Made by a program: the position numbers and the translations under genes | Part shown: positions 24,930-42,674 of the stretch, one piece after another | How positions within the stretch are numbered: position 1 is the stretch's first letter | How the letters are laid out: each line of letters begins with the position of its first letter | Assembly: GCA_051005405.1 (NCBI GenBank) | Contig: JBPCJJ010000062.1 | Span: 14,941 to 78,940 of the forward strand | Reading direction: 5' to 3' | DNA: 64,000 nt | DNA from: Gemmatimonadaceae bacterium | GTDB lineage: Bacteria > Gemmatimonadota > Gemmatimonadetes > Gemmatimonadales > Gemmatimonadaceae | Notes under the pieces: model-generated | What the model was told of the DNA's origin: nothing | Database searches by the model: none | What the model saw: the letters and a program-made list of their open reading frames with translations, nothing else

Positions 24930-25034
24930 CGGCAAGGGTATGGGTTGGCGGTTATTCGCTCAGCGTTGCGTGTCAGTGATGGAGCCGCGGGCAGCATTCT
25001 GCAGGTTGGACATCCGGCGCATAGAATTCGGGCA

Positions 25035-25586
25035 ATGAAGAGAGATGCGATTTCGTGGGGGGCGCTGGCACGCACCACCGTGCGCGCGGGCGGCGCGGCG
25101 CGGTGCAGGCGTTGCGTCGGGCTCACGCAATCCGATTTCGCGGACGCTGTCGGAGTTGGGCGTGTGACTGTAGCGCGGTGGGAGACCGGCGTCATCCGCC
25201 CGACGGCGCGACACGTGAGCGCGATGCTCGACCTGCTCGCGGAGCTGGTTGCAAAATCAGGTCTCCCGCGCGCAGAGGACGGTGAGCTGCGCGAGCGGTT
25301 CGCGGTGGTGGTGTTGTTCGGCGCGCGGACGCGGCTCGCGCTGGCGGCATGGCGTGCGCTGCTCGATCTCCCGGCGACTGCATTGACGGGCGTGCCGACG
25401 GCGGAAGGGAGGGATGGACGGCCGCTCGCGTCGGGCTACGACGTCGGACTCTGGATCGAGCGAAAGCTTCGGCAGAAGGAGCCGCGGTCGCCGGTATCCG
25501 GCGATGGGGCGCGGGAGTTGGGGGAGCGGCGGTTAATGACCGAGGTCGTATTTCTGGCGGAAGGGTTTCGGTCGAACAGCCGGTAA
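25035..25586 (+). CDS. XRE-family helix-turn-helix protein
   Basis: GLTQSDFADAVGVGRVTVARWETG is a classic XRE HTH. I preferred the ATG at 25035 over the ORF-track start at 24945. Confidence 0.55.
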   Translation: MKRDAISWGALARTTVRAGGAARCRRCVGLTQSDFADAVGVGRVTVARWETGVIRPTARHVSAMLDLLAELVAKSGLPRAEDGELRERFAVVVLFGARTRLALAAWRALLDLPATALTGVPTAEGRDGRPLASGYDVGLWIERKLRQKEPRSPVSGDGARELGERRLMTEVVFLAEGFRSNSR

Positions 25587-25664
25587 CGGCGCTGCGTGCT
25601 GCGTGCTAATTGCCGAGAACCAACAGCGGGCTTCCCGGTATTTTACATTTCACACGCAGCATAT

Positions 25665-25736
25665 GGCGCGGTAGCCAAGTGGTAAGGCAGCGGTCTGCAA
25701 AACCGCTATTCGCCGGTTCGATTCCGGCCCGCGCCT
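25665..25736 (+). tRNA. tRNA-Cys (anticodon GCA)
   Basis: Cloverleaf folded by hand. Acceptor GGCGCGG/CCGCGCC, anticodon arm GCGGT-CTGCAAA-ACCGC (anticodon GCA), T arm GCCGG-TTCGATT-CCGGC. The discriminator is U, as expected for tRNA-Cys. CCA is not encoded. Confidence 0.9.
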
Positions 25737-25738
25737 CT
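25694..25738 (+). repeat. attL-like copy of the 45-bp direct repeat (anticodon loop to 3' end of tRNA-Cys, plus 2 nt)
   Basis: tctgcaaaaccgctattcgccggttcgattccggcccgcgcctct is identical to 27017-27061. Confidence 0.9.
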
Positions 25739-25862
25739 AGACGCACGAAGGCCACGCACCTCTCACGACCGTCCCACGCCGATGGCAGGATTCCGTAGTC
25801 CTTAGTCCTTTGCCGAATTTGTAGTGTTCGGCCGCTAGGGTTGGGTTCGGCGTGAGCCTCGG

Positions 25863-26261
25863 TTAAGCGACTGCCACTTCCAGGTGTGGTTGCTCGTTCC
25901 GCTTGGGCGTGTAAACCTGGATCTTCACGCTCTTGCCGAGCACCAGGTACCACTCTGTCAGCTTGTCATAAGTGATACTTGAAAGCTTGTTGTTCCAGAG
26001 AGCAGAGATGGTGGGTTGACTGGTGCCTAGACGTTTTGCCGCTTCCCGCTGACTCCAGCGCTTCTTCTCGATCAAATTCTTGATCCCAATCGCCAAGTCT
26101 GCTTTGGCCTTCCGCTCTTCGGCATCGGCAAAGCGTAGGTCAGCAAACACATTCCCACTGCTAAGCACGATGCTATTCTCATTGGCCTCATCAGCTCTAT
26201 CTATGGCCAGAGTCTTGATTCTCTTCGCGCTTTCGATGCGATTCTTCGTTCCGGCAGTCAT
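25863..26261 (-). CDS. XRE-family HTH antitoxin (HigA-like)
   Basis: GNVFADLRFADAEERKAKADLAIGIKNLIEKKRWSQREAAKRLGTSQPTISALWNNKL matches the antitoxin family that partners Gp49-like toxins. It lies 45 nt downstream of the toxin gene. Confidence 0.8.
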   Translation of the reverse strand: MTAGTKNRIESAKRIKTLAIDRADEANENSIVLSSGNVFADLRFADAEERKAKADLAIGIKNLIEKKRWSQREAAKRLGTSQPTISALWNNKLSSITYDKLTEWYLVLGKSVKIQVYTPKRNEQPHLEVAVA

Positions 26262-26306
26262 TGCTCTCTATCCATGGTAGGCGGGTTGGTTTTCCGGTCC
26301 GAACTG

Positions 26307-26729
26307 TTAATAGTCCGAACGGTTTTTGTAGTTGGCTCGCGCGACTTTCAGCCGAGCGCGTATTCTGTCTAAGTCCTCTGCCGGTGTCGCGATTCCCGAC
26401 TTGGATCTTTTCTGGAAGGAACCCAGTACGTAAACCACGCCTTTCATTTTCACCGTGTACATCGTTCTGTAGGTTCCGCTTTTATCGTTCCCGATTATCT
26501 CCTCCACATCGCGGAGGTCGCCTTTCATCGACTTTGAGTTCGCCGGCCTTCGGCCCTGCTGTGCTTCGCTCAGCGCGTGTCCGAATACATCTCTTAGATC
26601 TTCCGAGAGCGCATTCAATTCCTTGTAAGCGCGACCTACCCAAACCAGTTCTTTCTCTTTCTCCACTGCTTTCGCCCTCGCGGTACTGCCCACGAATAGA
26701 TCGTCCGAAGATACAGGATTTAGTATCAC
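26307..26729 (-). CDS. RelE/ParE-superfamily toxin, phage Gp49-like (DUF891)
   Basis: ELVWVGRAYKELNALSEDLRDVFGHALSEAQQG ... GTYRTMYTVKMKGVVYVLGSFQKRSKSGIATPAEDLDRIRARLK has the family's characteristic layout. GTG start. Toxin-first order, as in HigBA. Confidence 0.8.
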   Translation of the reverse strand: MILNPVSSDDLFVGSTARAKAVEKEKELVWVGRAYKELNALSEDLRDVFGHALSEAQQGRRPANSKSMKGDLRDVEEIIGNDKSGTYRTMYTVKMKGVVYVLGSFQKRSKSGIATPAEDLDRIRARLKVARANYKNRSDY

Positions 26730-27016
26730 CAGGCAAGGGGTGGGGGCAATTCATTCGCCCTACTTGGCTACCTCCGTTTGGGTGAGCTTTCCCTTCCAGA
26801 AGTACACACGGACCCCCAGTTGCAGGTCGCCTCAACCGCGAGCCCCAGTTTAGAGGTCTCGGGTATGGGAGTCGCGCACGGTGGGTAAATCCGTGGGTAA
26901 ATCTGCTGGCAAAGGGATGCAACGAAATGCACCGTCTCCACGGCCTTGAATAGCTAAATGGCCGATTTCACAGCCGCGTACACGCGTTGGCAACATTTGC
27001 AACGCCACATCATCGT

Positions 27017-27061
27017 TCTGCAAAACCGCTATTCGCCGGTTCGATTCCGGCCCGCGCCTCT
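27017..27061 (+). repeat. attR-like copy of the 45-bp direct repeat (tRNA-Cys 3' half only)
   Basis: Identical to 25694-25738. The sequence 5' of it cannot complete a tRNA. Confidence 0.9.
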
Positions 27062-27236
27062 CGTAGTGCCCAACTGGGCTAGCGCCCAGCGTCCGACCTC
27101 TTCGTCGATTTAGTCGTCCCGCTCCCCCCGCGCGAACCGAAAGTCGCAGGGCGTGTTCGGTCCCGGACCGAGGTCGCGACTGGTGTGCTGTTTGCATCGC
27201 GCCCCCTGGTAGTCCCCCCTAACGGTTCATGACAAC

Positions 27237-27713
27237 ATGCAAACGGACAGCCTTACAGATGCGCAGTTGAAGGATCAGATCTGTCGTGCGTTCGGCCTCG
27301 AGCGCGACTCCATGGAGACTGTCTCGGCACGGGCCTTCGATTTGCTCCCCGGGCGCGATCTGATCGTCTGGGAGGGGGATGCCCAAACATTCCAGTTCTC
27401 CTTTGTCAGCGATTCGGCCAGGACCATCCTTGGATACCCGCTGGAGCGTTGGACCACCGAGCCGACTTTCTGGGCTGACACGGTGGTTCATCCCGATGAC
27501 CGGAGCGAAGCGATTGCTTTCTGTGCGCTCGCGACGGGCCGTTGCCGCGACCATGACTTCGTGTATCGCGCGATCGCTGCGGATGGGCGCACGGTTGTTC
27601 TCCATGATGTCGTCAAGGTCATCATCGGGACCAGAGGAGTCGCAAGCAGGCTCCGGGGGATCATGCTCGACGTCACGGACGAACAGAACGAATTCGCCAC
27701 CGGCGCCGGGTAA
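27237..27713 (+). CDS. Stand-alone PAS-domain protein
   Basis: 158 aa. FSFVSDSARTILGYPLERWTTEPTFWADTVVHPDDR ... HDFVYRAIAADGRTVVLHDVV is a PAS-fold pattern. There is no output domain. Confidence 0.6.
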   Translation: MQTDSLTDAQLKDQICRAFGLERDSMETVSARAFDLLPGRDLIVWEGDAQTFQFSFVSDSARTILGYPLERWTTEPTFWADTVVHPDDRSEAIAFCALATGRCRDHDFVYRAIAADGRTVVLHDVVKVIIGTRGVASRLRGIMLDVTDEQNEFATGAG

Positions 27714-27748
27714 CCGCTCATCGAACAGCGACCGCCCGATAGATAATC

Positions 27749-29287
27749 GTGCAGACTTTTCAATCGGACATCGAAGACCTGTTTCGGCAGGCTCCGATCT
27801 TTTTCGCGGTGCTCCGTGGTCCCACCTATGTGTTCGAGCGCGCCAATGACGCTTACCTACAGATCATCGGGCACCGGGACATTCTCGGCAAACCGCTGCT
27901 GGAAGCGCTACCCGAAATTGCGGGCCAGGGATTTGTCGAGCTGCTCGACGAAGTAATCGATACTGGAAAGCCTTTTATCGCGCGCGGCATGCCCGCGTCC
28001 GTGCAGAGATCTGCCGGGGCGCCGCCTGAGGAGGTGTGGGTCGATTTCGTATTTCAGCCCCTTCGCGCCGAGAATGGCACTGTCGATGGCGTGATTGTGG
28101 TTGGATCCGACGTCACCAAGCAATTCATCGCCGTCAGGGAGGCGGAAGCAAAGGCTCGCGCGCTCGCGGCTAGCGAGGAGCAGTTAGTGACCGCCGTTAA
28201 TTCCATTCCGACATTGGCCTGGATGGCCAATGCAGACGGGTGGATCTTCTGGTACAACGCGCGATGGTACCAGTACACTGGCACGACCCCGGAGGCCATG
28301 GAAGGCTGGGGCTGGCAGTCGGTTCATGATCCCGAAATTCTGCCATCGGTGCTCGAGCGATGGACGCTGTCGATCGCGACGGGGGAGCCGTTCGAAATGG
28401 AGTTTCCCCTACGGAGTTCCTCGGGCGAATTTCGTTGGTTTCTGACGCGGGTTTCTCCGCTATTCGGTGCCAACGGGGAGATCGTACGCTGGTTCGGAAC
28501 CAACACCGACGTGCATAGCCAGCGGGAGGCGGCGGATGCCGCGAAGGCGGCGAATCAAGCCAAGTCCAACTTCCTCGCAGCCATGAGCCACGAAACGCGT
28601 CAGCCCATCAACGCAACGCTCGGTTTCGTCGAAGTCCTCGAGATGGAGATGTACGGCCCGCTCAATGAGGAACAGAAGAAGGCGCTCGCCCGCATTCGTC
28701 TGAACCAGGAGCAGCTGCGTACAGTCGTTACCGATGTGCTCTCGTTCGCCCGATTGGAGGTGGGTCAAGTTCAATTGCAGCACGAGATGCTTCAATGCCA
28801 TGACCTCCTTGCAGACATCCCCTCGCTGACCGAACCCCAGATGGCCGCCCGGCAGGTCAGCATGCGGGTGGAACTTTGTGATGAGACGCTCATTGCGCGG
28901 GGTGACAGGAATCGTGTGCTGCAGATCTGCACGAACCTGCTGACCAACGCTCTCCGCGCGAGCGAAAATGGCGGAGTAATTACGATGCGTTGCCGTGCGA
29001 GAGATGAATGGGTAGACATTGAGGTCGAAGATGCTGGAACCGGTATCCCAGCGGACAAGCTGGAGCATATTTTCGAACCATTCGTGCAGCTGGATCGCGG
29101 CTTGAACAGGCCGCGGGAAGGCGTAGGTCTGGGCCTCGCGATCAGTCGCGACCTGGCGCGAGCAATGGGCGGCGAGCTCACGGTCAAGAGTGCCGAGGGC
29201 GAAGGGTCCACCTTCACGCTCTCCCTCCCGGGCTCCGCAACGCCAGGCGATGCAACCGCACCAGACTCCCAGCTGCGCGGGGCGTAG
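27749..29287 (+). CDS. Cytoplasmic PAS-PAS sensor histidine kinase
   Basis: Two PAS-like segments (including WMANADGWIFWYNARWYQYTG ... EFRWFLTRVSPL). H-box FLAAMSHETRQPINATLGF. HATPase motifs NLLTNALRA, DAGTGI, GVGLGLAISRDLARAMGG. No TM helix and no adjacent response regulator. Confidence 0.85.
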   Translation: MQTFQSDIEDLFRQAPIFFAVLRGPTYVFERANDAYLQIIGHRDILGKPLLEALPEIAGQGFVELLDEVIDTGKPFIARGMPASVQRSAGAPPEEVWVDFVFQPLRAENGTVDGVIVVGSDVTKQFIAVREAEAKARALAASEEQLVTAVNSIPTLAWMANADGWIFWYNARWYQYTGTTPEAMEGWGWQSVHDPEILPSVLERWTLSIATGEPFEMEFPLRSSSGEFRWFLTRVSPLFGANGEIVRWFGTNTDVHSQREAADAAKAANQAKSNFLAAMSHETRQPINATLGFVEVLEMEMYGPLNEEQKKALARIRLNQEQLRTVVTDVLSFARLEVGQVQLQHEMLQCHDLLADIPSLTEPQMAARQVSMRVELCDETLIARGDRNRVLQICTNLLTNALRASENGGVITMRCRARDEWVDIEVEDAGTGIPADKLEHIFEPFVQLDRGLNRPREGVGLGLAISRDLARAMGGELTVKSAEGEGSTFTLSLPGSATPGDATAPDSQLRGA

Positions 29288-29362
29288 TTACTGCAGGGTA
29301 GCCCTGACGTTCGGAAGAAGCAGGTTCACGCGCAGGTAGCTGCGCGCGAAATGAGCGAAAAG

Positions 29363-29400
29363 AAAGAGCCCCCGCAACCGATTGGCTGCGGGGGCTCTTT
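29363..29400. terminator. Bidirectional hairpin terminator between convergent genes
   Basis: 14-bp perfect stem AAAGAGCCCCCGCA/TGCGGGGGCTCTTT with a 10-nt loop. On the minus strand it is followed by TTTCTTTTCGCTCATTT and sits 13 nt after the nuclease stop. Confidence 0.65.
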
Positions 29401-29413
29401 CGTGCTGCTGCCG

Positions 29414-33695: not shown

Positions 33696-36335
33696 CTACG
33701 GATTGAACCAGTAGCTCACCTTGATCAGGAAAACGTCGTCCGGTGCGGTCTTGAACAGGGAGCTCAGGTCCCGGCCGAGGCCAAACTCGCCGATGGGCTC
33801 GAAGGACTCGCGGTTCTGTTGCCAGGCGAGGTACAAGGTCGAGCCCGGCCGCCACTCCCAGCGCATGACGGCGTTGCCGCGGAGCGAGCGGACGTTGAAA
33901 TCCGGCTGCGGAAGCGCGAACGAGGGTCCGCCCGATGTCTGACCCGTCGGGTACACGCGGCCGTTCGCGATCTCGCCGACGTCCTGTCCGTAGACCAGGA
34001 AGCTGAACTCGCCGGGCTGCGCGAACTCCTTCGGCGGACCGTAGTCGCCCGCGGCGAGGAACGGCTGCAAGAACAGCTGCAGCGACATGCCTGGTGAGAA
34101 CGTGTAGTTCACGCGCGTATCGATAGCGAACACGGTCTGCTCGAGCTCCGCGAAGATGTAGCGCGTGCCGAACGTATTGGTCGCTGCGGGATCTACCAGA
34201 CGCTGGAGGTATTGCGCGGTATTGTTGCCGCGCCCGAACGAGGGTGAGAGCGACAGGTCCCAGTGCGGCGCAGGCTTGAGGGTGAGGCCCGTCCACACCT
34301 CGGTGTGGTCGCCCGCTCTGCCCCGGTTGGCGAATCCGCCGACATTTCCAACGAGTTTCCTGCGCGGATCCGACGAGACGTTGACGTTGATCGAGGAGAA
34401 CGCCGGCCTGTCGGCAACAGGCCCGCCGCGCGTGAGCCGGTCATCGACTGTGCCCGCGAACGAGTGCTGGAGGTTTCCATTGACGCTCCAGTAGTTCATC
34501 AGCTGGCCGTACGCGCCGGCAAAAATCCGGTTGGAGACGTTATCGCCTCCGTAATTGTGCTCGAAGGATCCGTTCGAGTAGGACTGCCACCTGCGGAAGA
34601 TTCCCTGTGGGCGTGACTCGTTGTAGTTCACATTAAACGTGAGGTCGAGCCGGTCCGCGCGGCGCTGAAAGCCGAGGTCGCTGACCTCGTAGTCGGGACT
34701 TATGGTGTTCACGCCCATGCGTCCCGACCAGTGCCGGTTCATCTGCTTGGAGAGCGACAGTGCGCCGGCGAACCCGGTCATGCTTTCGAGCGCCGGGTCG
34801 TAGTCGAGGTGATCCGCGTCCGGCCGCTGGAAATAGTGGTACGGCAGCCGCTGCGTTGCCGCGATCACTCCGGCGTCGCCACGGACATGGCTGGCGCCCA
34901 CGAAGCCGCGCAGAGTGAACGTGCGTTGCGACCATTGATGACTGAAGTCAATGCCGCCCGAGTAAGCGGCGGATCTCAAAGCGGCGGATAGCTCATCGGT
35001 CTCGAGCTTGCGGTTCACGGCGCCGAACAGCGCTCCCACTGACGTGGCTCCCGAGCGGAGCTCCCGTCGCGCGCGTCCGACGAAATAGTTGGTCAGCGGT
35101 TCGACCACGCTTTCGCCGCGCGTTCCGTCGGGCGCCTGGAAGCGTCCCATCTCGCGTGCCGTGACCGCGTCGAGCGCACCCGTCGCCCATCCGCCGCCGG
35201 TGCGACCCGTGAGCTTCACCGCGCCGAGAATGCTCGTCTCGTTGGGAACATCACGCAGGGCGTACGGCGGTGCCAGCGACGGACGCCGTCCGATGCGCCG
35301 CGAATAGAAAACGTTGTTCGCCCCGTCGTCGCCAAAGCGGAAAAGCTCGGATCCTTCAATGAAGAACGGACGTCTTTCGGGGAAAAACGTCTCGAACGCG
35401 GTGAGGTTGATCACGGCGGGATCCACTTCGACCTGGCCGAAGTCCGGGTTCACCGTTGCGTCGAGCGTGAGGCTGCTGGTGAGCCGGTACTTGAGATCCG
35501 CGCCGGCGTCGAGCTTGAGCTCGCGGTCCTTGCGAAAGGGACTACCCCCGCGATCGATCATCTCCGCCTTGGATACGACGTACGGCATGAACTCGAGGCG
35601 CTTGCCGGTCGCGAGGCGAGTGAGGTTGGTTACGTGCCCGTAGCGCGGCGCTCCACCCGGCTGGCCGGGCGGCGTGTACGCCCAGGACGAGAATTCCTGG
35701 TTGCGGGCGATCTGCCGCTCGATCTGCATTCCCCACGTCTGCTCGAGGGCGCCGCTGAAGCGGACCTGGCTGAAGGGGATACGCATCTCCGCTACCCAGC
35801 CTGAATCACTGATACTGGTCGCCACCTCCCACACGGGGTCCCACGAATCGTCCTCGCCCCGGTCGGCGCGAGTCTGATCGCGACGAACGCCGGCCGGGTT
35901 CACCTCAAAACCGAACGAAGTGCGGTGATCGTGCCGCGCGTCGATGATCACGGTCAGCCAGTCGGAAGCGGACATTTCCATGTCGCGGCGGCCCATGCGC
36001 GTCCGCACCTGCTGCCGGTCGTACATCTTCGCGCCGATGTACAGCGCGTTGTCGTCGTACAGGATCCGGATCTCGGTGCGCTCGCTGGCGGGCTGCCCTT
36101 CGTTCGGCGCCGACTGCGTGAACTCGGTGATCGGGGTCGCGGACTGCCACGCGGCTTCGTCGAGCGCGCCGTCAACCCTGATCGGAGTCGTGACCCGCGC
36201 CGCGGACGCGCCCGGGGCGTGGCGATCGTGCTCGTACTCAGTGCGGATCTGCCCGGACGCGGGGGCCGGAGCTTCCTGAGCGGAGACGGGACCGGCAACG
36301 GTCAATGCCAGAGCTGCGAACAGTGCTCGCTTCAT
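33696..36335 (-). CDS. DUF5916 / carbohydrate-binding-family-9-like outer-membrane protein
   Basis: Signal peptide (MKRALFAALALTVAGPVSAQ). The N-terminal IRVDGALDEAAWQSATPITEFTQSAPNEGQPASERTEIRILYDDNALYIGAKMYD is typical of this family (from memory). The long C-terminus is beta-rich and ends ...KVSYWFNP. Confidence 0.6.
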   Translation of the reverse strand: MKRALFAALALTVAGPVSAQEAPAPASGQIRTEYEHDRHAPGASAARVTTPIRVDGALDEAAWQSATPITEFTQSAPNEGQPASERTEIRILYDDNALYIGAKMYDRQQVRTRMGRRDMEMSASDWLTVIIDARHDHRTSFGFEVNPAGVRRDQTRADRGEDDSWDPVWEVATSISDSGWVAEMRIPFSQVRFSGALEQTWGMQIERQIARNQEFSSWAYTPPGQPGGAPRYGHVTNLTRLATGKRLEFMPYVVSKAEMIDRGGSPFRKDRELKLDAGADLKYRLTSSLTLDATVNPDFGQVEVDPAVINLTAFETFFPERRPFFIEGSELFRFGDDGANNVFYSRRIGRRPSLAPPYALRDVPNETSILGAVKLTGRTGGGWATGALDAVTAREMGRFQAPDGTRGESVVEPLTNYFVGRARRELRSGATSVGALFGAVNRKLETDELSAALRSAAYSGGIDFSHQWSQRTFTLRGFVGASHVRGDAGVIAATQRLPYHYFQRPDADHLDYDPALESMTGFAGALSLSKQMNRHWSGRMGVNTISPDYEVSDLGFQRRADRLDLTFNVNYNESRPQGIFRRWQSYSNGSFEHNYGGDNVSNRIFAGAYGQLMNYWSVNGNLQHSFAGTVDDRLTRGGPVADRPAFSSINVNVSSDPRRKLVGNVGGFANRGRAGDHTEVWTGLTLKPAPHWDLSLSPSFGRGNNTAQYLQRLVDPAATNTFGTRYIFAELEQTVFAIDTRVNYTFSPGMSLQLFLQPFLAAGDYGPPKEFAQPGEFSFLVYGQDVGEIANGRVYPTGQTSGGPSFALPQPDFNVRSLRGNAVMRWEWRPGSTLYLAWQQNRESFEPIGEFGLGRDLSSLFKTAPDDVFLIKVSYWFNP

Positions 36336-41012: not shown

Positions 41013-42674
41013 ATGGACCGTTCGCGCAACTCGCGAACAACAGACATCCTCACCAAGCTTCCCGGTTTCGCGGCGTTGTTCGCGACGGCGGCGGGTTCGA
41101 TCGTCATCGCTGGATGGTCGCTCGGAATCCCCATGCTGACGAGAATGATTCCGGGATTCGCTCCCACGCCTTTGCTCGCGGGCGCTGCCATGGTTGGGTC
41201 GGGGGCGGCGCTCTGGCTGGTGCGCGACGCGGAAGCCGGCTCGCTCAAGCGGTTCGTCTCCGCGGCGCTCGCGATTTTCGTCGCCACGGTCGCGCTCGCA
41301 TCCGCGGGCGAGCACATCTCCGCGAGATCGATCGACTGGTCCAGCTTTGGCGCGCGCGTTGCCGCGACTCCCGGGCTGACCGGCAGACTCCCAATCAACT
41401 CGGCGTGGGGCTATTTCCTCGTCGCTATCGCGATCTGGACGCTGTGCTCTCGACGACTCAGCAGGAGCCGCGCGCCACAGTGGCTCGGTCTCGCGATCTT
41501 CCTGACGGGATTCTTCGCGCTTGTCGGACGCGCGTTCGAGGTAAGCGCGTTTTACAGCCCGATGCCGGGAGCTCCGATGAGCCTCTGGACGATGGTGTCG
41601 CTCCAGGTGCTTGGCATCGGCGTCGTGTTCGCGCGGCGTTGGTTCGGCTTTTCCGCGCTGCTAATGGACAAGGGTCCCGGGGGGAAGCTCGCACGGCGCC
41701 TTCTCCCGCCGGCGATAGCGATGCCTTTTGTCGTGGGATGGGCAGCGCTCCTTCTCGAGCGCGCGGGCGTGTACGGGACCGAAGTCGGGTCGTCGTTCTT
41801 CGCGGTCACGATCGTTCTTGCGTTCACGTGGATGGTGATGCGCGCCGCCCGCGCGGTGCAGCGCGCCGACGCCGAGCGCCTCGCGGTCCTGGCTCGGGAG
41901 CAGCACGAGCGCGAAGTCGCCGAGGTGGCGCTGGTCACCGCGGAGAAGGCGAGCCTCGCGAAGAGCGACTTTCTCGCTGTCATGTCGCACGAGCTGCGTA
42001 CGCCGCTCACCGCGATCATGGGGTACGAGGAGCTGCTCGCGGACGGGATCACGGGGCCGGTCAACCCGCAGCAGGCGCAGCAGCTGGGCCGGATCAAGGC
42101 GAGCGCCCAGCATCTGCTCGGTCTCATCGACGAGGTCCTGACTTTCTCGAGGATCGAAGCCGGCCGCGAGACGATTCGTCTCGAGATCGCGGACGTGAAC
42201 CGCATTATCGAAGATTCGGCCAACCTGGTGGCGCCGCTGGCGGCGGAGAAGAAGCTCGGCTTTGTCGTGCACCTGCTCGACCCGCCGCGTTTCATGCGCA
42301 CCGATCCGGTAAAAGTGCGTCAGATGATCGTGAACCTTCTCACGAACGCGGTGAAGTTCACGGAGGCCGGCACGGTGAGCTGCAAAGTTGCTGCAGACGG
42401 ACAGAACATCGAGATTACCGTGCACGACACGGGCATCGGAATCTCGGCCGAGCATCTCGACAAGGTGTTCGATCCGTTCTGGCAAGTCGAGCAGAAGGCG
42501 ACGCGCAGGGCGGGGGGTACCGGGCTTGGTCTCACGGTTACGCGACGCCTCGCGCGGCTGCTGGGCGGCGATGTCGCGGTGGAGAGCAGCGTGGGCGAGG
42601 GAACTACGTTCAGGATCACGATCCCGGGGCTCGCTTCCAGCACGCCGACCGGCACACCAGCGGTGATACCATGA
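41013..42674 (+). CDS. Membrane sensor histidine kinase (multi-TM N-terminal sensor, no receiver)
   Basis: The ATG at 41013 lies beyond the terminator, whereas the ORF-track GTG at 40923 lies upstream of and reads through it. Several TM helices, H-box [19 protein letters not shown], and HATPase motifs NLLTNAVKF, DTGIGI, GTGLGLTVTRRLARLLGG. Confidence 0.85.
   Translation: MDRSRNSRTTDILTKLPGFAALFATAAGSIVIAGWSLGIPMLTRMIPGFAPTPLLAGAAMVGSGAALWLVRDAEAGSLKRFVSAALAIFVATVALASAGEHISARSIDWSSFGARVAATPGLTGRLPINSAWGYFLVAIAIWTLCSRRLSRSRAPQWLGLAIFLTGFFALVGRAFEVSAFYSPMPGAPMSLWTMVSLQVLGIGVVFARRWFGFSALLMDKGPGGKLARRLLPPAIAMPFVVGWAALLLERAGVYGTEVGSSFFAVTIVLAFTWMVMRAARAVQRADAERLAVLAREQHEREVAEVALVTAEKASLAKSDFLAVMSHELRTPLTAIMGYEELLADGITGPVNPQQAQQLGRIKASAQHLLGLIDEVLTFSRIEAGRETIRLEIADVNRIIEDSANLVAPLAAEKKLGFVVHLLDPPRFMRTDPVKVRQMIVNLLTNAVKFTEAGTVSCKVAADGQNIEITVHDTGIGISAEHLDKVFDPFWQVEQKATRRAGGTGLGLTVTRRLARLLGGDVAVESSVGEGTTFRITIPGLASSTPTGTPAVIP

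Follow-up and report, generated by a model that had tools for sequence, protein, structure and literature searches.

We examined a window of 64,000 nucleotides (nt) on contig C62 of a Gemmatimonadaceae metagenome-assembled genome (MAG) from a soil bacterium (2.13 Mb in 139 contigs, 80% complete), and in particular a small islet that follows its tRNA-Cys gene. The tRNA-Cys(GCA) gene, an intact integration target on the plus strand (25665-25737; predicted by ARAGORN, 70.8 bits with the Rfam tRNA model), ends in one copy of a 45-nt attachment (att) core, attL (25694-25738, plus strand), and a second copy, attR (27017-27061, plus strand), lies downstream. The islet is the 1278 nt between the two cores (25739-27016). 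It has only two credible genes, a toxin and an antitoxin, both on the minus strand, and these are bordered by a non-coding arm on the tRNA-proximal left side (25739-25862), which is also the 3' trailer of the antitoxin gene, and by non-coding sequence on the right that ends in a candidate recombination arm (26879-27016, plus strand). In the following, G000 is the genome that contains the window, other G numbers are genomes of relatives, and L numbers are contigs used for comparison.

An exact 45-nt direct repeat at tRNA-Cys had been claimed in an initial annotation of this DNA, and the repeat is indeed exact: 25694-25738 equals 27017-27061 with 0 mismatches, with two occurrences in the window where shuffled sequences lead one to expect none. 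The core is found just twice in the assembly, and tRNA-Cys is therefore single-copy there. Its ends needed slight correction. Its first base (25694) is the last one of the 5' anticodon-stem strand and does not lie within the anticodon loop (CTGCAAA, 25695-25701), and the repeat ends 1 nt beyond the discriminator base, not 2 nt past the 3' end of the tRNA; similarity continues for 6 nt more leftward with two mismatches, giving 51 nt at 96% identity. The second copy is the displaced 3' part of tRNA-Cys and, as the annotation had noted, no tRNA 5' half accompanies it; its trailer, CGTAGTG, is similar to CGTTGTA, the native tRNA trailer in other species of the genus. The extent of the core agrees with that of secondary tRNA-Cys fragments in relatives, and the copies in G004, G005, G016, and G033 begin at the same position as the repeat in the window.

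This duplication geometry is that of anticodon-loop integration into a tRNA gene, i.e., the anticodon-centred class of attachment sites (Williams 2002; PMC4383910). The features by which tRNA islands are recognised are largely present: an intact tRNA gene and a displaced 3' fragment on the same strand bound the element, the identity block runs from the anticodon stem-loop so that the crossover would fall in a 7-nt loop flanked by the inverted stem halves, and the enclosed DNA is foreign in composition and absent from related genomes. However, there is no integrase gene inside the islet. The target was also read for a dif-like sequence, and none was seen in the anticodon stem-loop of tRNA-Cys; an IMEX (XerC/XerD-exploiting element) identity was ruled out, as the target is this stem-loop and not a dif-like site.

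The cargo is a toxin-antitoxin pair, as had been proposed from the open reading frames (ORFs), and domain searches bear out both assignments. The toxin is a Gp49/HigB protein with a RelE fold (PF05973, E 8e-18), and the antitoxin (25863-26261, minus strand; 132 aa) is a HigA-like member of the HTH_37/XRE family (PF13744, E 5e-19) that also matches HTH_3 and the PDB entry 2o38 (E 8e-15). The toxin gene had been drawn as 26307-26729, and the longest ORF does begin at a GTG at 26729; however, the start is most likely the GTG at 26666, because gene callers give a 119-aa product on other contigs, this GTG is preceded by a GAGGG Shine-Dalgarno sequence, and, of the 21 codons that precede it, the first 11 contain three of the nine non-synonymous differences among the alleles. 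We therefore take 26307-26666 (minus strand, 119 aa) as the toxin gene. Its AlphaFold2 model (pLDDT 87.9) has Mycobacterium tuberculosis HigB1 (7awk) as the best Foldseek match, with a TM-score of 0.63, followed by RelE and YoeB structures. The toxin gene comes first (26666-26307) and is separated by a 45-nt spacer from the antitoxin gene (26261-25863), which is the HigBA-type order; a small toxin with a RelE/ParE-superfamily fold is thus encoded upstream of an XRE-type helix-turn-helix (HTH) antitoxin in one operon, as in HigB/HigA-like pairs. The pair resembles the type II HigB/HigA systems (M. tuberculosis HigB1, 7awk/7nbu) in gene order, in the RelE/HigB fold of the toxin, and in the XRE-type HTH antitoxin, whereas the toxin is only 10-18% identical to the solved HigB/RelE structures, falls into Pfam family Gp49, and is known here by sequence and model.

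Both ORFs are intact in all four natural alleles compared, namely the window type and the variants on contigs L047, L048, and L049. The presumed promoter/operator region upstream of the toxin gene (26667-26761, minus strand) is 96-100% identical in the four variants and contains an inverted repeat, GATAC-N8-GTATC (26710-26727), which is a possible operator; beyond this region, the sequence is deleted or rearranged in the variants. A segment of ~65 nt upstream of the toxin gene (26780-26844) is inverted in L047 (1998-2059), with no flanking inverted repeats recognised. No sigma-70-type promoter was found in a consensus scan, Rfam recorded no RNA besides the tRNA in the islet, and more distant homologues of the pair (62-74% identity) are unlinked to tRNA-Cys. 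By prediction, the toxin acts as a ribosome-dependent mRNA endonuclease and the antitoxin represses the operon, and the pair probably stabilises the islet through putative post-segregational killing. A defence role is also possible; PADLOC assigned no defence system to the pair or to the cargoes of the other islets described below.

The base composition of the islet is foreign. Its GC content (0.539) is below that of every one of 9825 equal-sized windows sampled genome-wide (mean 0.649, standard deviation 0.022). The low GC noted initially therefore stands for the islet as a whole and is most pronounced in the two genes (0.52), whereas the non-coding arms reach 0.57-0.61 and the right flank (27062-29413) has a GC content of 0.61 and not the 0.65 attributed to the surroundings. 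The architecture itself is not a binning artefact, because a JGI contig of 2143 nt is 100% identical to the window over 25273-27415, including both junctions, and an NCBI contig of another lineage covers both junctions of the same islet with the same architecture.

The right arm carries what appear to be recombination sites. It contains GTGGGTAAATC twice (26881-26904), GGCAAAGGGATGCAAC, and, abutting the core, GGCAACATTTGCAACGCCACATCATCGT; GGGTAAAT has just 14 occurrences in the 2.13-Mb genome. About 135 nt to the left of attR can be aligned with the sequences beside att copies of a second islet in G004 (islet B), of an islet in G005, and of JGI contig L053, and in part of JGI contig L052, where the cargoes are unrelated. 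Across at least four cargo types, three conserved motif blocks stand between diverged spacers: a pair of direct TGGGTAA(A/G) repeats at ~115-125 nt from the core, GGCAAAG-N-ATGCAA, and, abutting the core, GGCAAC-N-AT-N-TGCAAAG-N-C-N-C-N-CATCGT. A distance of ~115-125 nt from the core is typical of arm-type integrase sites in attP sites of the lambda type. The arms of G000 and G004 are 76% identical, compared with 87% for the adjoining intergenic flank, which suggests an origin in separate elements of one family rather than vertical inheritance alone. The left arm, by contrast, is specific to the toxin-antitoxin islet and is 92-100% identical in its other copies, so that in the sequences compared the recombination-arm module is conserved on the attR side only. 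A tandem TAGTCCT pair within the left arm (25796-25809) is reduced to one unit in L049, which looks like slippage rather than a conserved site.

Look-ups with the antitoxin and toxin retrieved five further contigs, two identical to the window and three variants (L047, L048, and L049) in which the toxin-antitoxin genes are intact and 97.4-99.2% identical to those of the window at the nucleotide level. The islet thus occupies tRNA-Cys, without an integrase, in at least three other genomic backgrounds. In L049, the toxin-antitoxin genes are 98-99% identical to those of the window, while the upstream chromosomal flank matches G004 at 94.6% identity and the window at only 75%; L049 therefore appears to be a close relative of G004 that carries the toxin-antitoxin islet where G004 holds other islets, and the islet is far more alike between L049 and the window than either flank. 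In L048, the genes are ~98% and the arm 96.6% identical to those of the window, and the right flank differs, with an ancestral-type tRNA trailer and a RibD_C gene. L047 has a rearranged right side that adjoins a gene for a BTAD/TPR regulator; this 644-aa neighbour was considered as a relative of the TPR cargo of G005 or as part of a parent island and was rejected, being a common BTAD/SARP-TPR regulator. All variants have the exact left junction, CCTCT followed directly by AGACGCACG, and it is therefore the integrase-less form that spread.

The site is also a hot spot for other insertions. The upstream genes, encoding a BIG2 protein, an HTH protein, and tRNA-Cys, are syntenic in G001 and G004-G008. 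The HTH gene directly upstream of tRNA-Cys in these genomes (24945-25586 in the window, XRE-type) is fast-evolving, with 75% nucleotide identity between G000 and G004 compared with 86-96% for its neighbours. An empty site, which the initial annotation had proposed to look for, is found in G006, where the tRNA is followed by a terminator and, at 146 nt, by the orthologue of the window gene at 33696-36335. The content of the site differs from that of the window in G004, G005, G007, and G008. In G004, the closest sequenced relative (PAS and kinase genes 94-96% identical), with which both flanks of the window are syntenic, tRNA-Cys is followed by a 1.07-kb islet with a DUF3800 gene (islet A), an att copy, a 1.39-kb islet with membrane and Zn-ribbon proteins (islet B), another att copy, and then the PAS flank seen in the window; islet B carries the homologous arm, and islet A has none. 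In G005, a 2.3-kb islet with one TPR gene ends in the same arm and an att copy. No integrase was found in the islets of G004 or G005. The initial reading of the repeat as an integration footprint is therefore supported by the anticodon-loop geometry and by the absence or replacement of the segment in other species of the genus, together with the lack of an integrase.

Elsewhere in the order, tandem att-bounded arrays at tRNA-Cys occur with and without an integrase (G033, G011, G016, and G013). The integrase of G011 lies ~16 kb into its first island, with restriction-type and nuclease cargo beside the tRNA, and the whole G013 assembly yielded two Xer-type recombinase hits only. In G016 (L015, contig C84, 2015-14112), a 12-kb segment from tRNA-Cys to an identical 45-nt fragment contains a nuo-like NADH dehydrogenase/Mrp-antiporter operon and no tyrosine integrase. 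In G033 (L016, contig C70, 10-640), a 186-aa ORF directly after the 3' end of tRNA-Cys corresponds to the catalytic C-terminal part of a tyrosine recombinase only and could be a truncated or split integrase; behind it lie, in tandem, a 4.5-kb and a 10.5-kb segment, both att-bounded, whose right arms are similar. An SSV-type split integrase, an idea taken from this fragment, was rejected for the islet, as its gaps are too short. The near-complete genome G011 (L026, contig C2, 1481960-1600696) has three more tRNA-Cys fragments 47, 70, and 119 kb downstream of the tRNA, and its first island opens with a PD-(D/E)XK nuclease, a ResIII helicase, and a DNA methylase, i.e., defence-type cargo.

Two further observations concern the remainder of the window. 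The segment next to attR (27062-29413), comprising a PAS gene, a PAS-PAS histidine kinase gene, and intergenic DNA, occurs in G000 and G004 but in none of the other genus genomes examined and is 94-96% identical between the two, compared with 75-86% for neighbouring core genes; it may be a second hot-spot insertion, older or separately exchanged, without a distal att copy. A 96-nt tRNA-Gln(CTG) called by ARAGORN at 41178-41273 has no Rfam tRNA match at E <= 1 and is probably a false positive.

The initial annotation had reported no tyrosine or serine recombinase in the islet, and a domain search likewise gave no match to PF00589 or PF00239. The assembly contains two PF00589 genes, XerD above the curated cut-off and a XerC-like gene just below it; no serine recombinase was detected in the assembled genome (80% complete), and no recombinase besides XerC/XerD was detected in the assembly, although an integrase could lie in the 20% of the genome that is missing. 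The two Xer proteins fall far short of the cut-offs of integron-integrase models, and the identity of the islet as an integron gene cassette (attC with IntI/attI) was ruled out, as the repeat is tRNA-derived and there is no integron-integrase match. No further copy of the att core or the arm was found elsewhere in the assembled genome, and no cognate integrase was found in the assembly or in nine other species representatives of the genus. A parent or helper was also sought by scanning 185,579 species genomes, JGI metagenome contigs, and IMG/VR with exact patterns, which diverged copies would escape. An exact 33-nt pattern from the toxin-antitoxin pair had no match in the species genomes or metagenome contigs, a degenerate arm-plus-core pattern matched only G004, G005, and two JGI contigs, none with an integrase, and the att core, with or without the arm, had no match in IMG/VR. 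The islet had no blastn match among plasmids and phages. The larger, integrase-carrying version of the islet envisaged initially was therefore found neither in these scans nor among the plasmids and phages.

We consider the islet to be a minimal non-autonomous element resembling the cis-mobilizable elements (CIMEs), which would have entered by tyrosine-type integration at the anticodon loop, moved horizontally in recent times, and depended on a helper recombinase; we put the probability of this reading at roughly 0.6. Its integrase would have been lost or never present, and its sole cargo would be the HigB/HigA-like type II pair. In agreement with the definition of CIMEs (PMC5704250), the islet keeps both attL and attR, with identical cores and an arm recognised on the attR side only, and it has no recombination or transfer genes, the toxin and antitoxin being its only genes. 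The comparison with other species is good evidence of recent horizontal movement, and the near-identical copies that they carry at this site suggest that the islet still spreads between species. Of the two alternatives offered by the initial annotation, mobilisation of a minimal element by a recombinase from elsewhere is better supported than an inert stump, because the islet, with the same left junction, is 97-99% identical across lineages whose flanks are 75% identical or unrelated and because motifs on the attR side are conserved among islets with different cargo; an integrase-carrying parent was not found in the collections scanned.

Mobilisation could proceed by accretion, as in the model described for CIMEs (PMC5704250). 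A helper element with a cognate integrase would insert into the intact tRNA gene, adjoining the islet, and the tandem would then excise through its outermost sites, which would need the tRNA-proximal arm of the helper and the distal arm and core of the islet. The tandem would be transferred and would integrate into tRNA-Cys of a new host, from which the helper might later depart alone. Such a mechanism would explain why the arm is conserved on one side (the distal one) only, why tandem arrays occur, and why copies are so similar between species.

Several observations weigh against a CIME-like, mobilised element. No helper or parent combining the arm with an integrase was present in the species genomes, JGI contigs, or IMG/VR scanned with exact patterns, and among 20 contigs of the genus with integrases near their ends, none of these integrases adjoins a tRNA-Cys fragment or the arm; their locations are tRNA-Arg or tRNA-Phe instead. 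No recombinase sites could be recognised in the left arm, which has no motif in common with the left ends of other islets. Three of the four variants have deletions or rearrangements (26756-26995 is deleted in L049, 26762-26929 in L048, and 25757-25847 in L047), by which the GTGGGTAAAT repeats of the right arm were lost in L049 and L048, and L047 has lost part of the left arm in addition to the rearrangement on its right side, so some copies are decaying and probably immobile. In addition, the same distribution could result from homologous recombination by way of the tRNA and att repeats.

This last point leads to an explanation that we regard as unlikely but by no means far-fetched, namely that the islet is an inert fossil, the decayed stump of a larger island, spread by homologous recombination of chromosomal DNA from relatives, with crossovers either in the tRNA (74 nt, identical) and the att copy of 45 nt or in the homologous arm, and with a toxin-antitoxin pair that makes its loss costly. 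The absence of an integrase from every scan and the arm deletions in three of the four variants would fit such a history. So would the 21-nt arm remnant of L049, which is identical to that of G004 and not to that of the window, as expected from a crossover inside the arm, and a G-to-A change shared by attR of L048 and the second att copy of G004, which suggests that cargo was replaced in front of an older displaced fragment. However, the usable homology is very short, the flanks beyond it are 75% identical or unrelated, and attR of the window has kept 0 mismatches although neighbouring non-coding DNA differs by 13-24% from G004. The retention of motif blocks across four cargo types while the spacers diverged also argues for selection on the sites.

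The shared module could alternatively reflect an integron-like cassette system at tRNA-Cys, in which single-gene cassettes, each consisting of a gene, the ~135-nt arm, and the 45-nt fragment, are shuffled by a dedicated recombinase acting in trans without any mobile helper. At least five one- or two-gene cargoes of 1.1-2.3 kb end in the module (G000, G004 islet B, G005, L052, and L053), arrays of two are present in G004 and L052, and none of the five cargoes has an integrase in cis. Nevertheless, we think this system improbable, as the G000 and G013 assemblies have only tyrosine recombinases of the XerC/XerD type, no recombinase gene is conserved beside the tRNA in the genus (the conserved upstream neighbour encodes the HTH protein), islet A of G004 has no arm, and the arrays are short. 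A broader proposition, that one Gemmatimonadaceae genus harbours a family of integrase-less one- or two-gene cassettes that are captured, stacked, and exchanged at tRNA-Cys by a recombinase acting in trans, is speculative and seems to us somewhat less remote than the dedicated system; if true, the family would be the counterpart, anchored at a tRNA, of an integron cassette array, in which the toxin-antitoxin pair travels as a free-standing selfish cassette. An artefact, i.e., a chimeric MAG contig mis-joined at the repeated tRNA fragment or a repeat arising by chance, can be practically discounted. Although the MAG has 139 contigs and 80% completeness, no chance matches are expected, the identical JGI contig and the NCBI contig of another lineage run over both junctions, and both flanks are syntenic with G004.

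If the CIME-like reading is correct, the islet is a very small non-autonomous integrative element, composed of two att sites, one arm, and an addiction module. That the arm is conserved on one side only then yields a testable prediction of the sites that a hitch-hiking element needs, and the locus offers a natural system in which to ask whether a toxin-antitoxin pair alone keeps a hitch-hiker in genomes. Islets of this kind would escape Islander and other island finders that rely on an integrase, and they may therefore be numerous at the tRNA hot spots of little-studied phyla, Gemmatimonadota among them.

Among known systems, the CIMEs of the Streptococcus thermophilus ICESt1/ICESt3 family (Pavlovic 2004; Bellanger 2011), insofar as the account in PMC5704250 covers them, are likewise flanked by attL and attR, have no integration or transfer genes, and share a single target gene with other elements in tandem, and accretion with an integrase-bearing element has been proposed for them. 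The islet differs in its size (1.3 kb), in having a toxin-antitoxin pair as sole cargo, in its occurrence in a Gemmatimonadaceae MAG, and in its target, the anticodon loop of tRNA-Cys; moreover, no related integrative and conjugative element or integrative and mobilizable element was found as parent or helper, and its mobilisation is inferred from its distribution. For whole sets of such islands, the closest published precedent is the ssrA locus of Dehalococcoides (PMC3146451), where integrase-less genomic islands stand in tandem, bounded by directly repeated copies of the 3' end of a small-RNA gene. Many of these islands have no integration module, each direct repeat has a conserved motif immediately upstream, and a CIME or accretion reading was proposed. 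However, a serine integrase, DsiB, is present in 16 of the Dehalococcoides islands, whereas no integrase was seen in our islet; their repeat is 20 bp in the T-loop of tmRNA, whereas ours is 45 nt from the anticodon loop of a tRNA; and their cargo consists of rdhA genes rather than a toxin-antitoxin pair. The anticodon-centred islands (the "A" sublocation; Williams 2002; Islander, PMC4383910) are alike in the regenerated intact tRNA gene, the displaced direct 3' fragment, and the identity block from the anticodon stem-loop to the 3' end, but Islander islands by definition hold a PF00589 integrase, so the islet, which has none, would be filtered out. Overall, the islet is best classed with the CIME-like, att-bounded islets that lack an integrase, as a new member of unusually small size.

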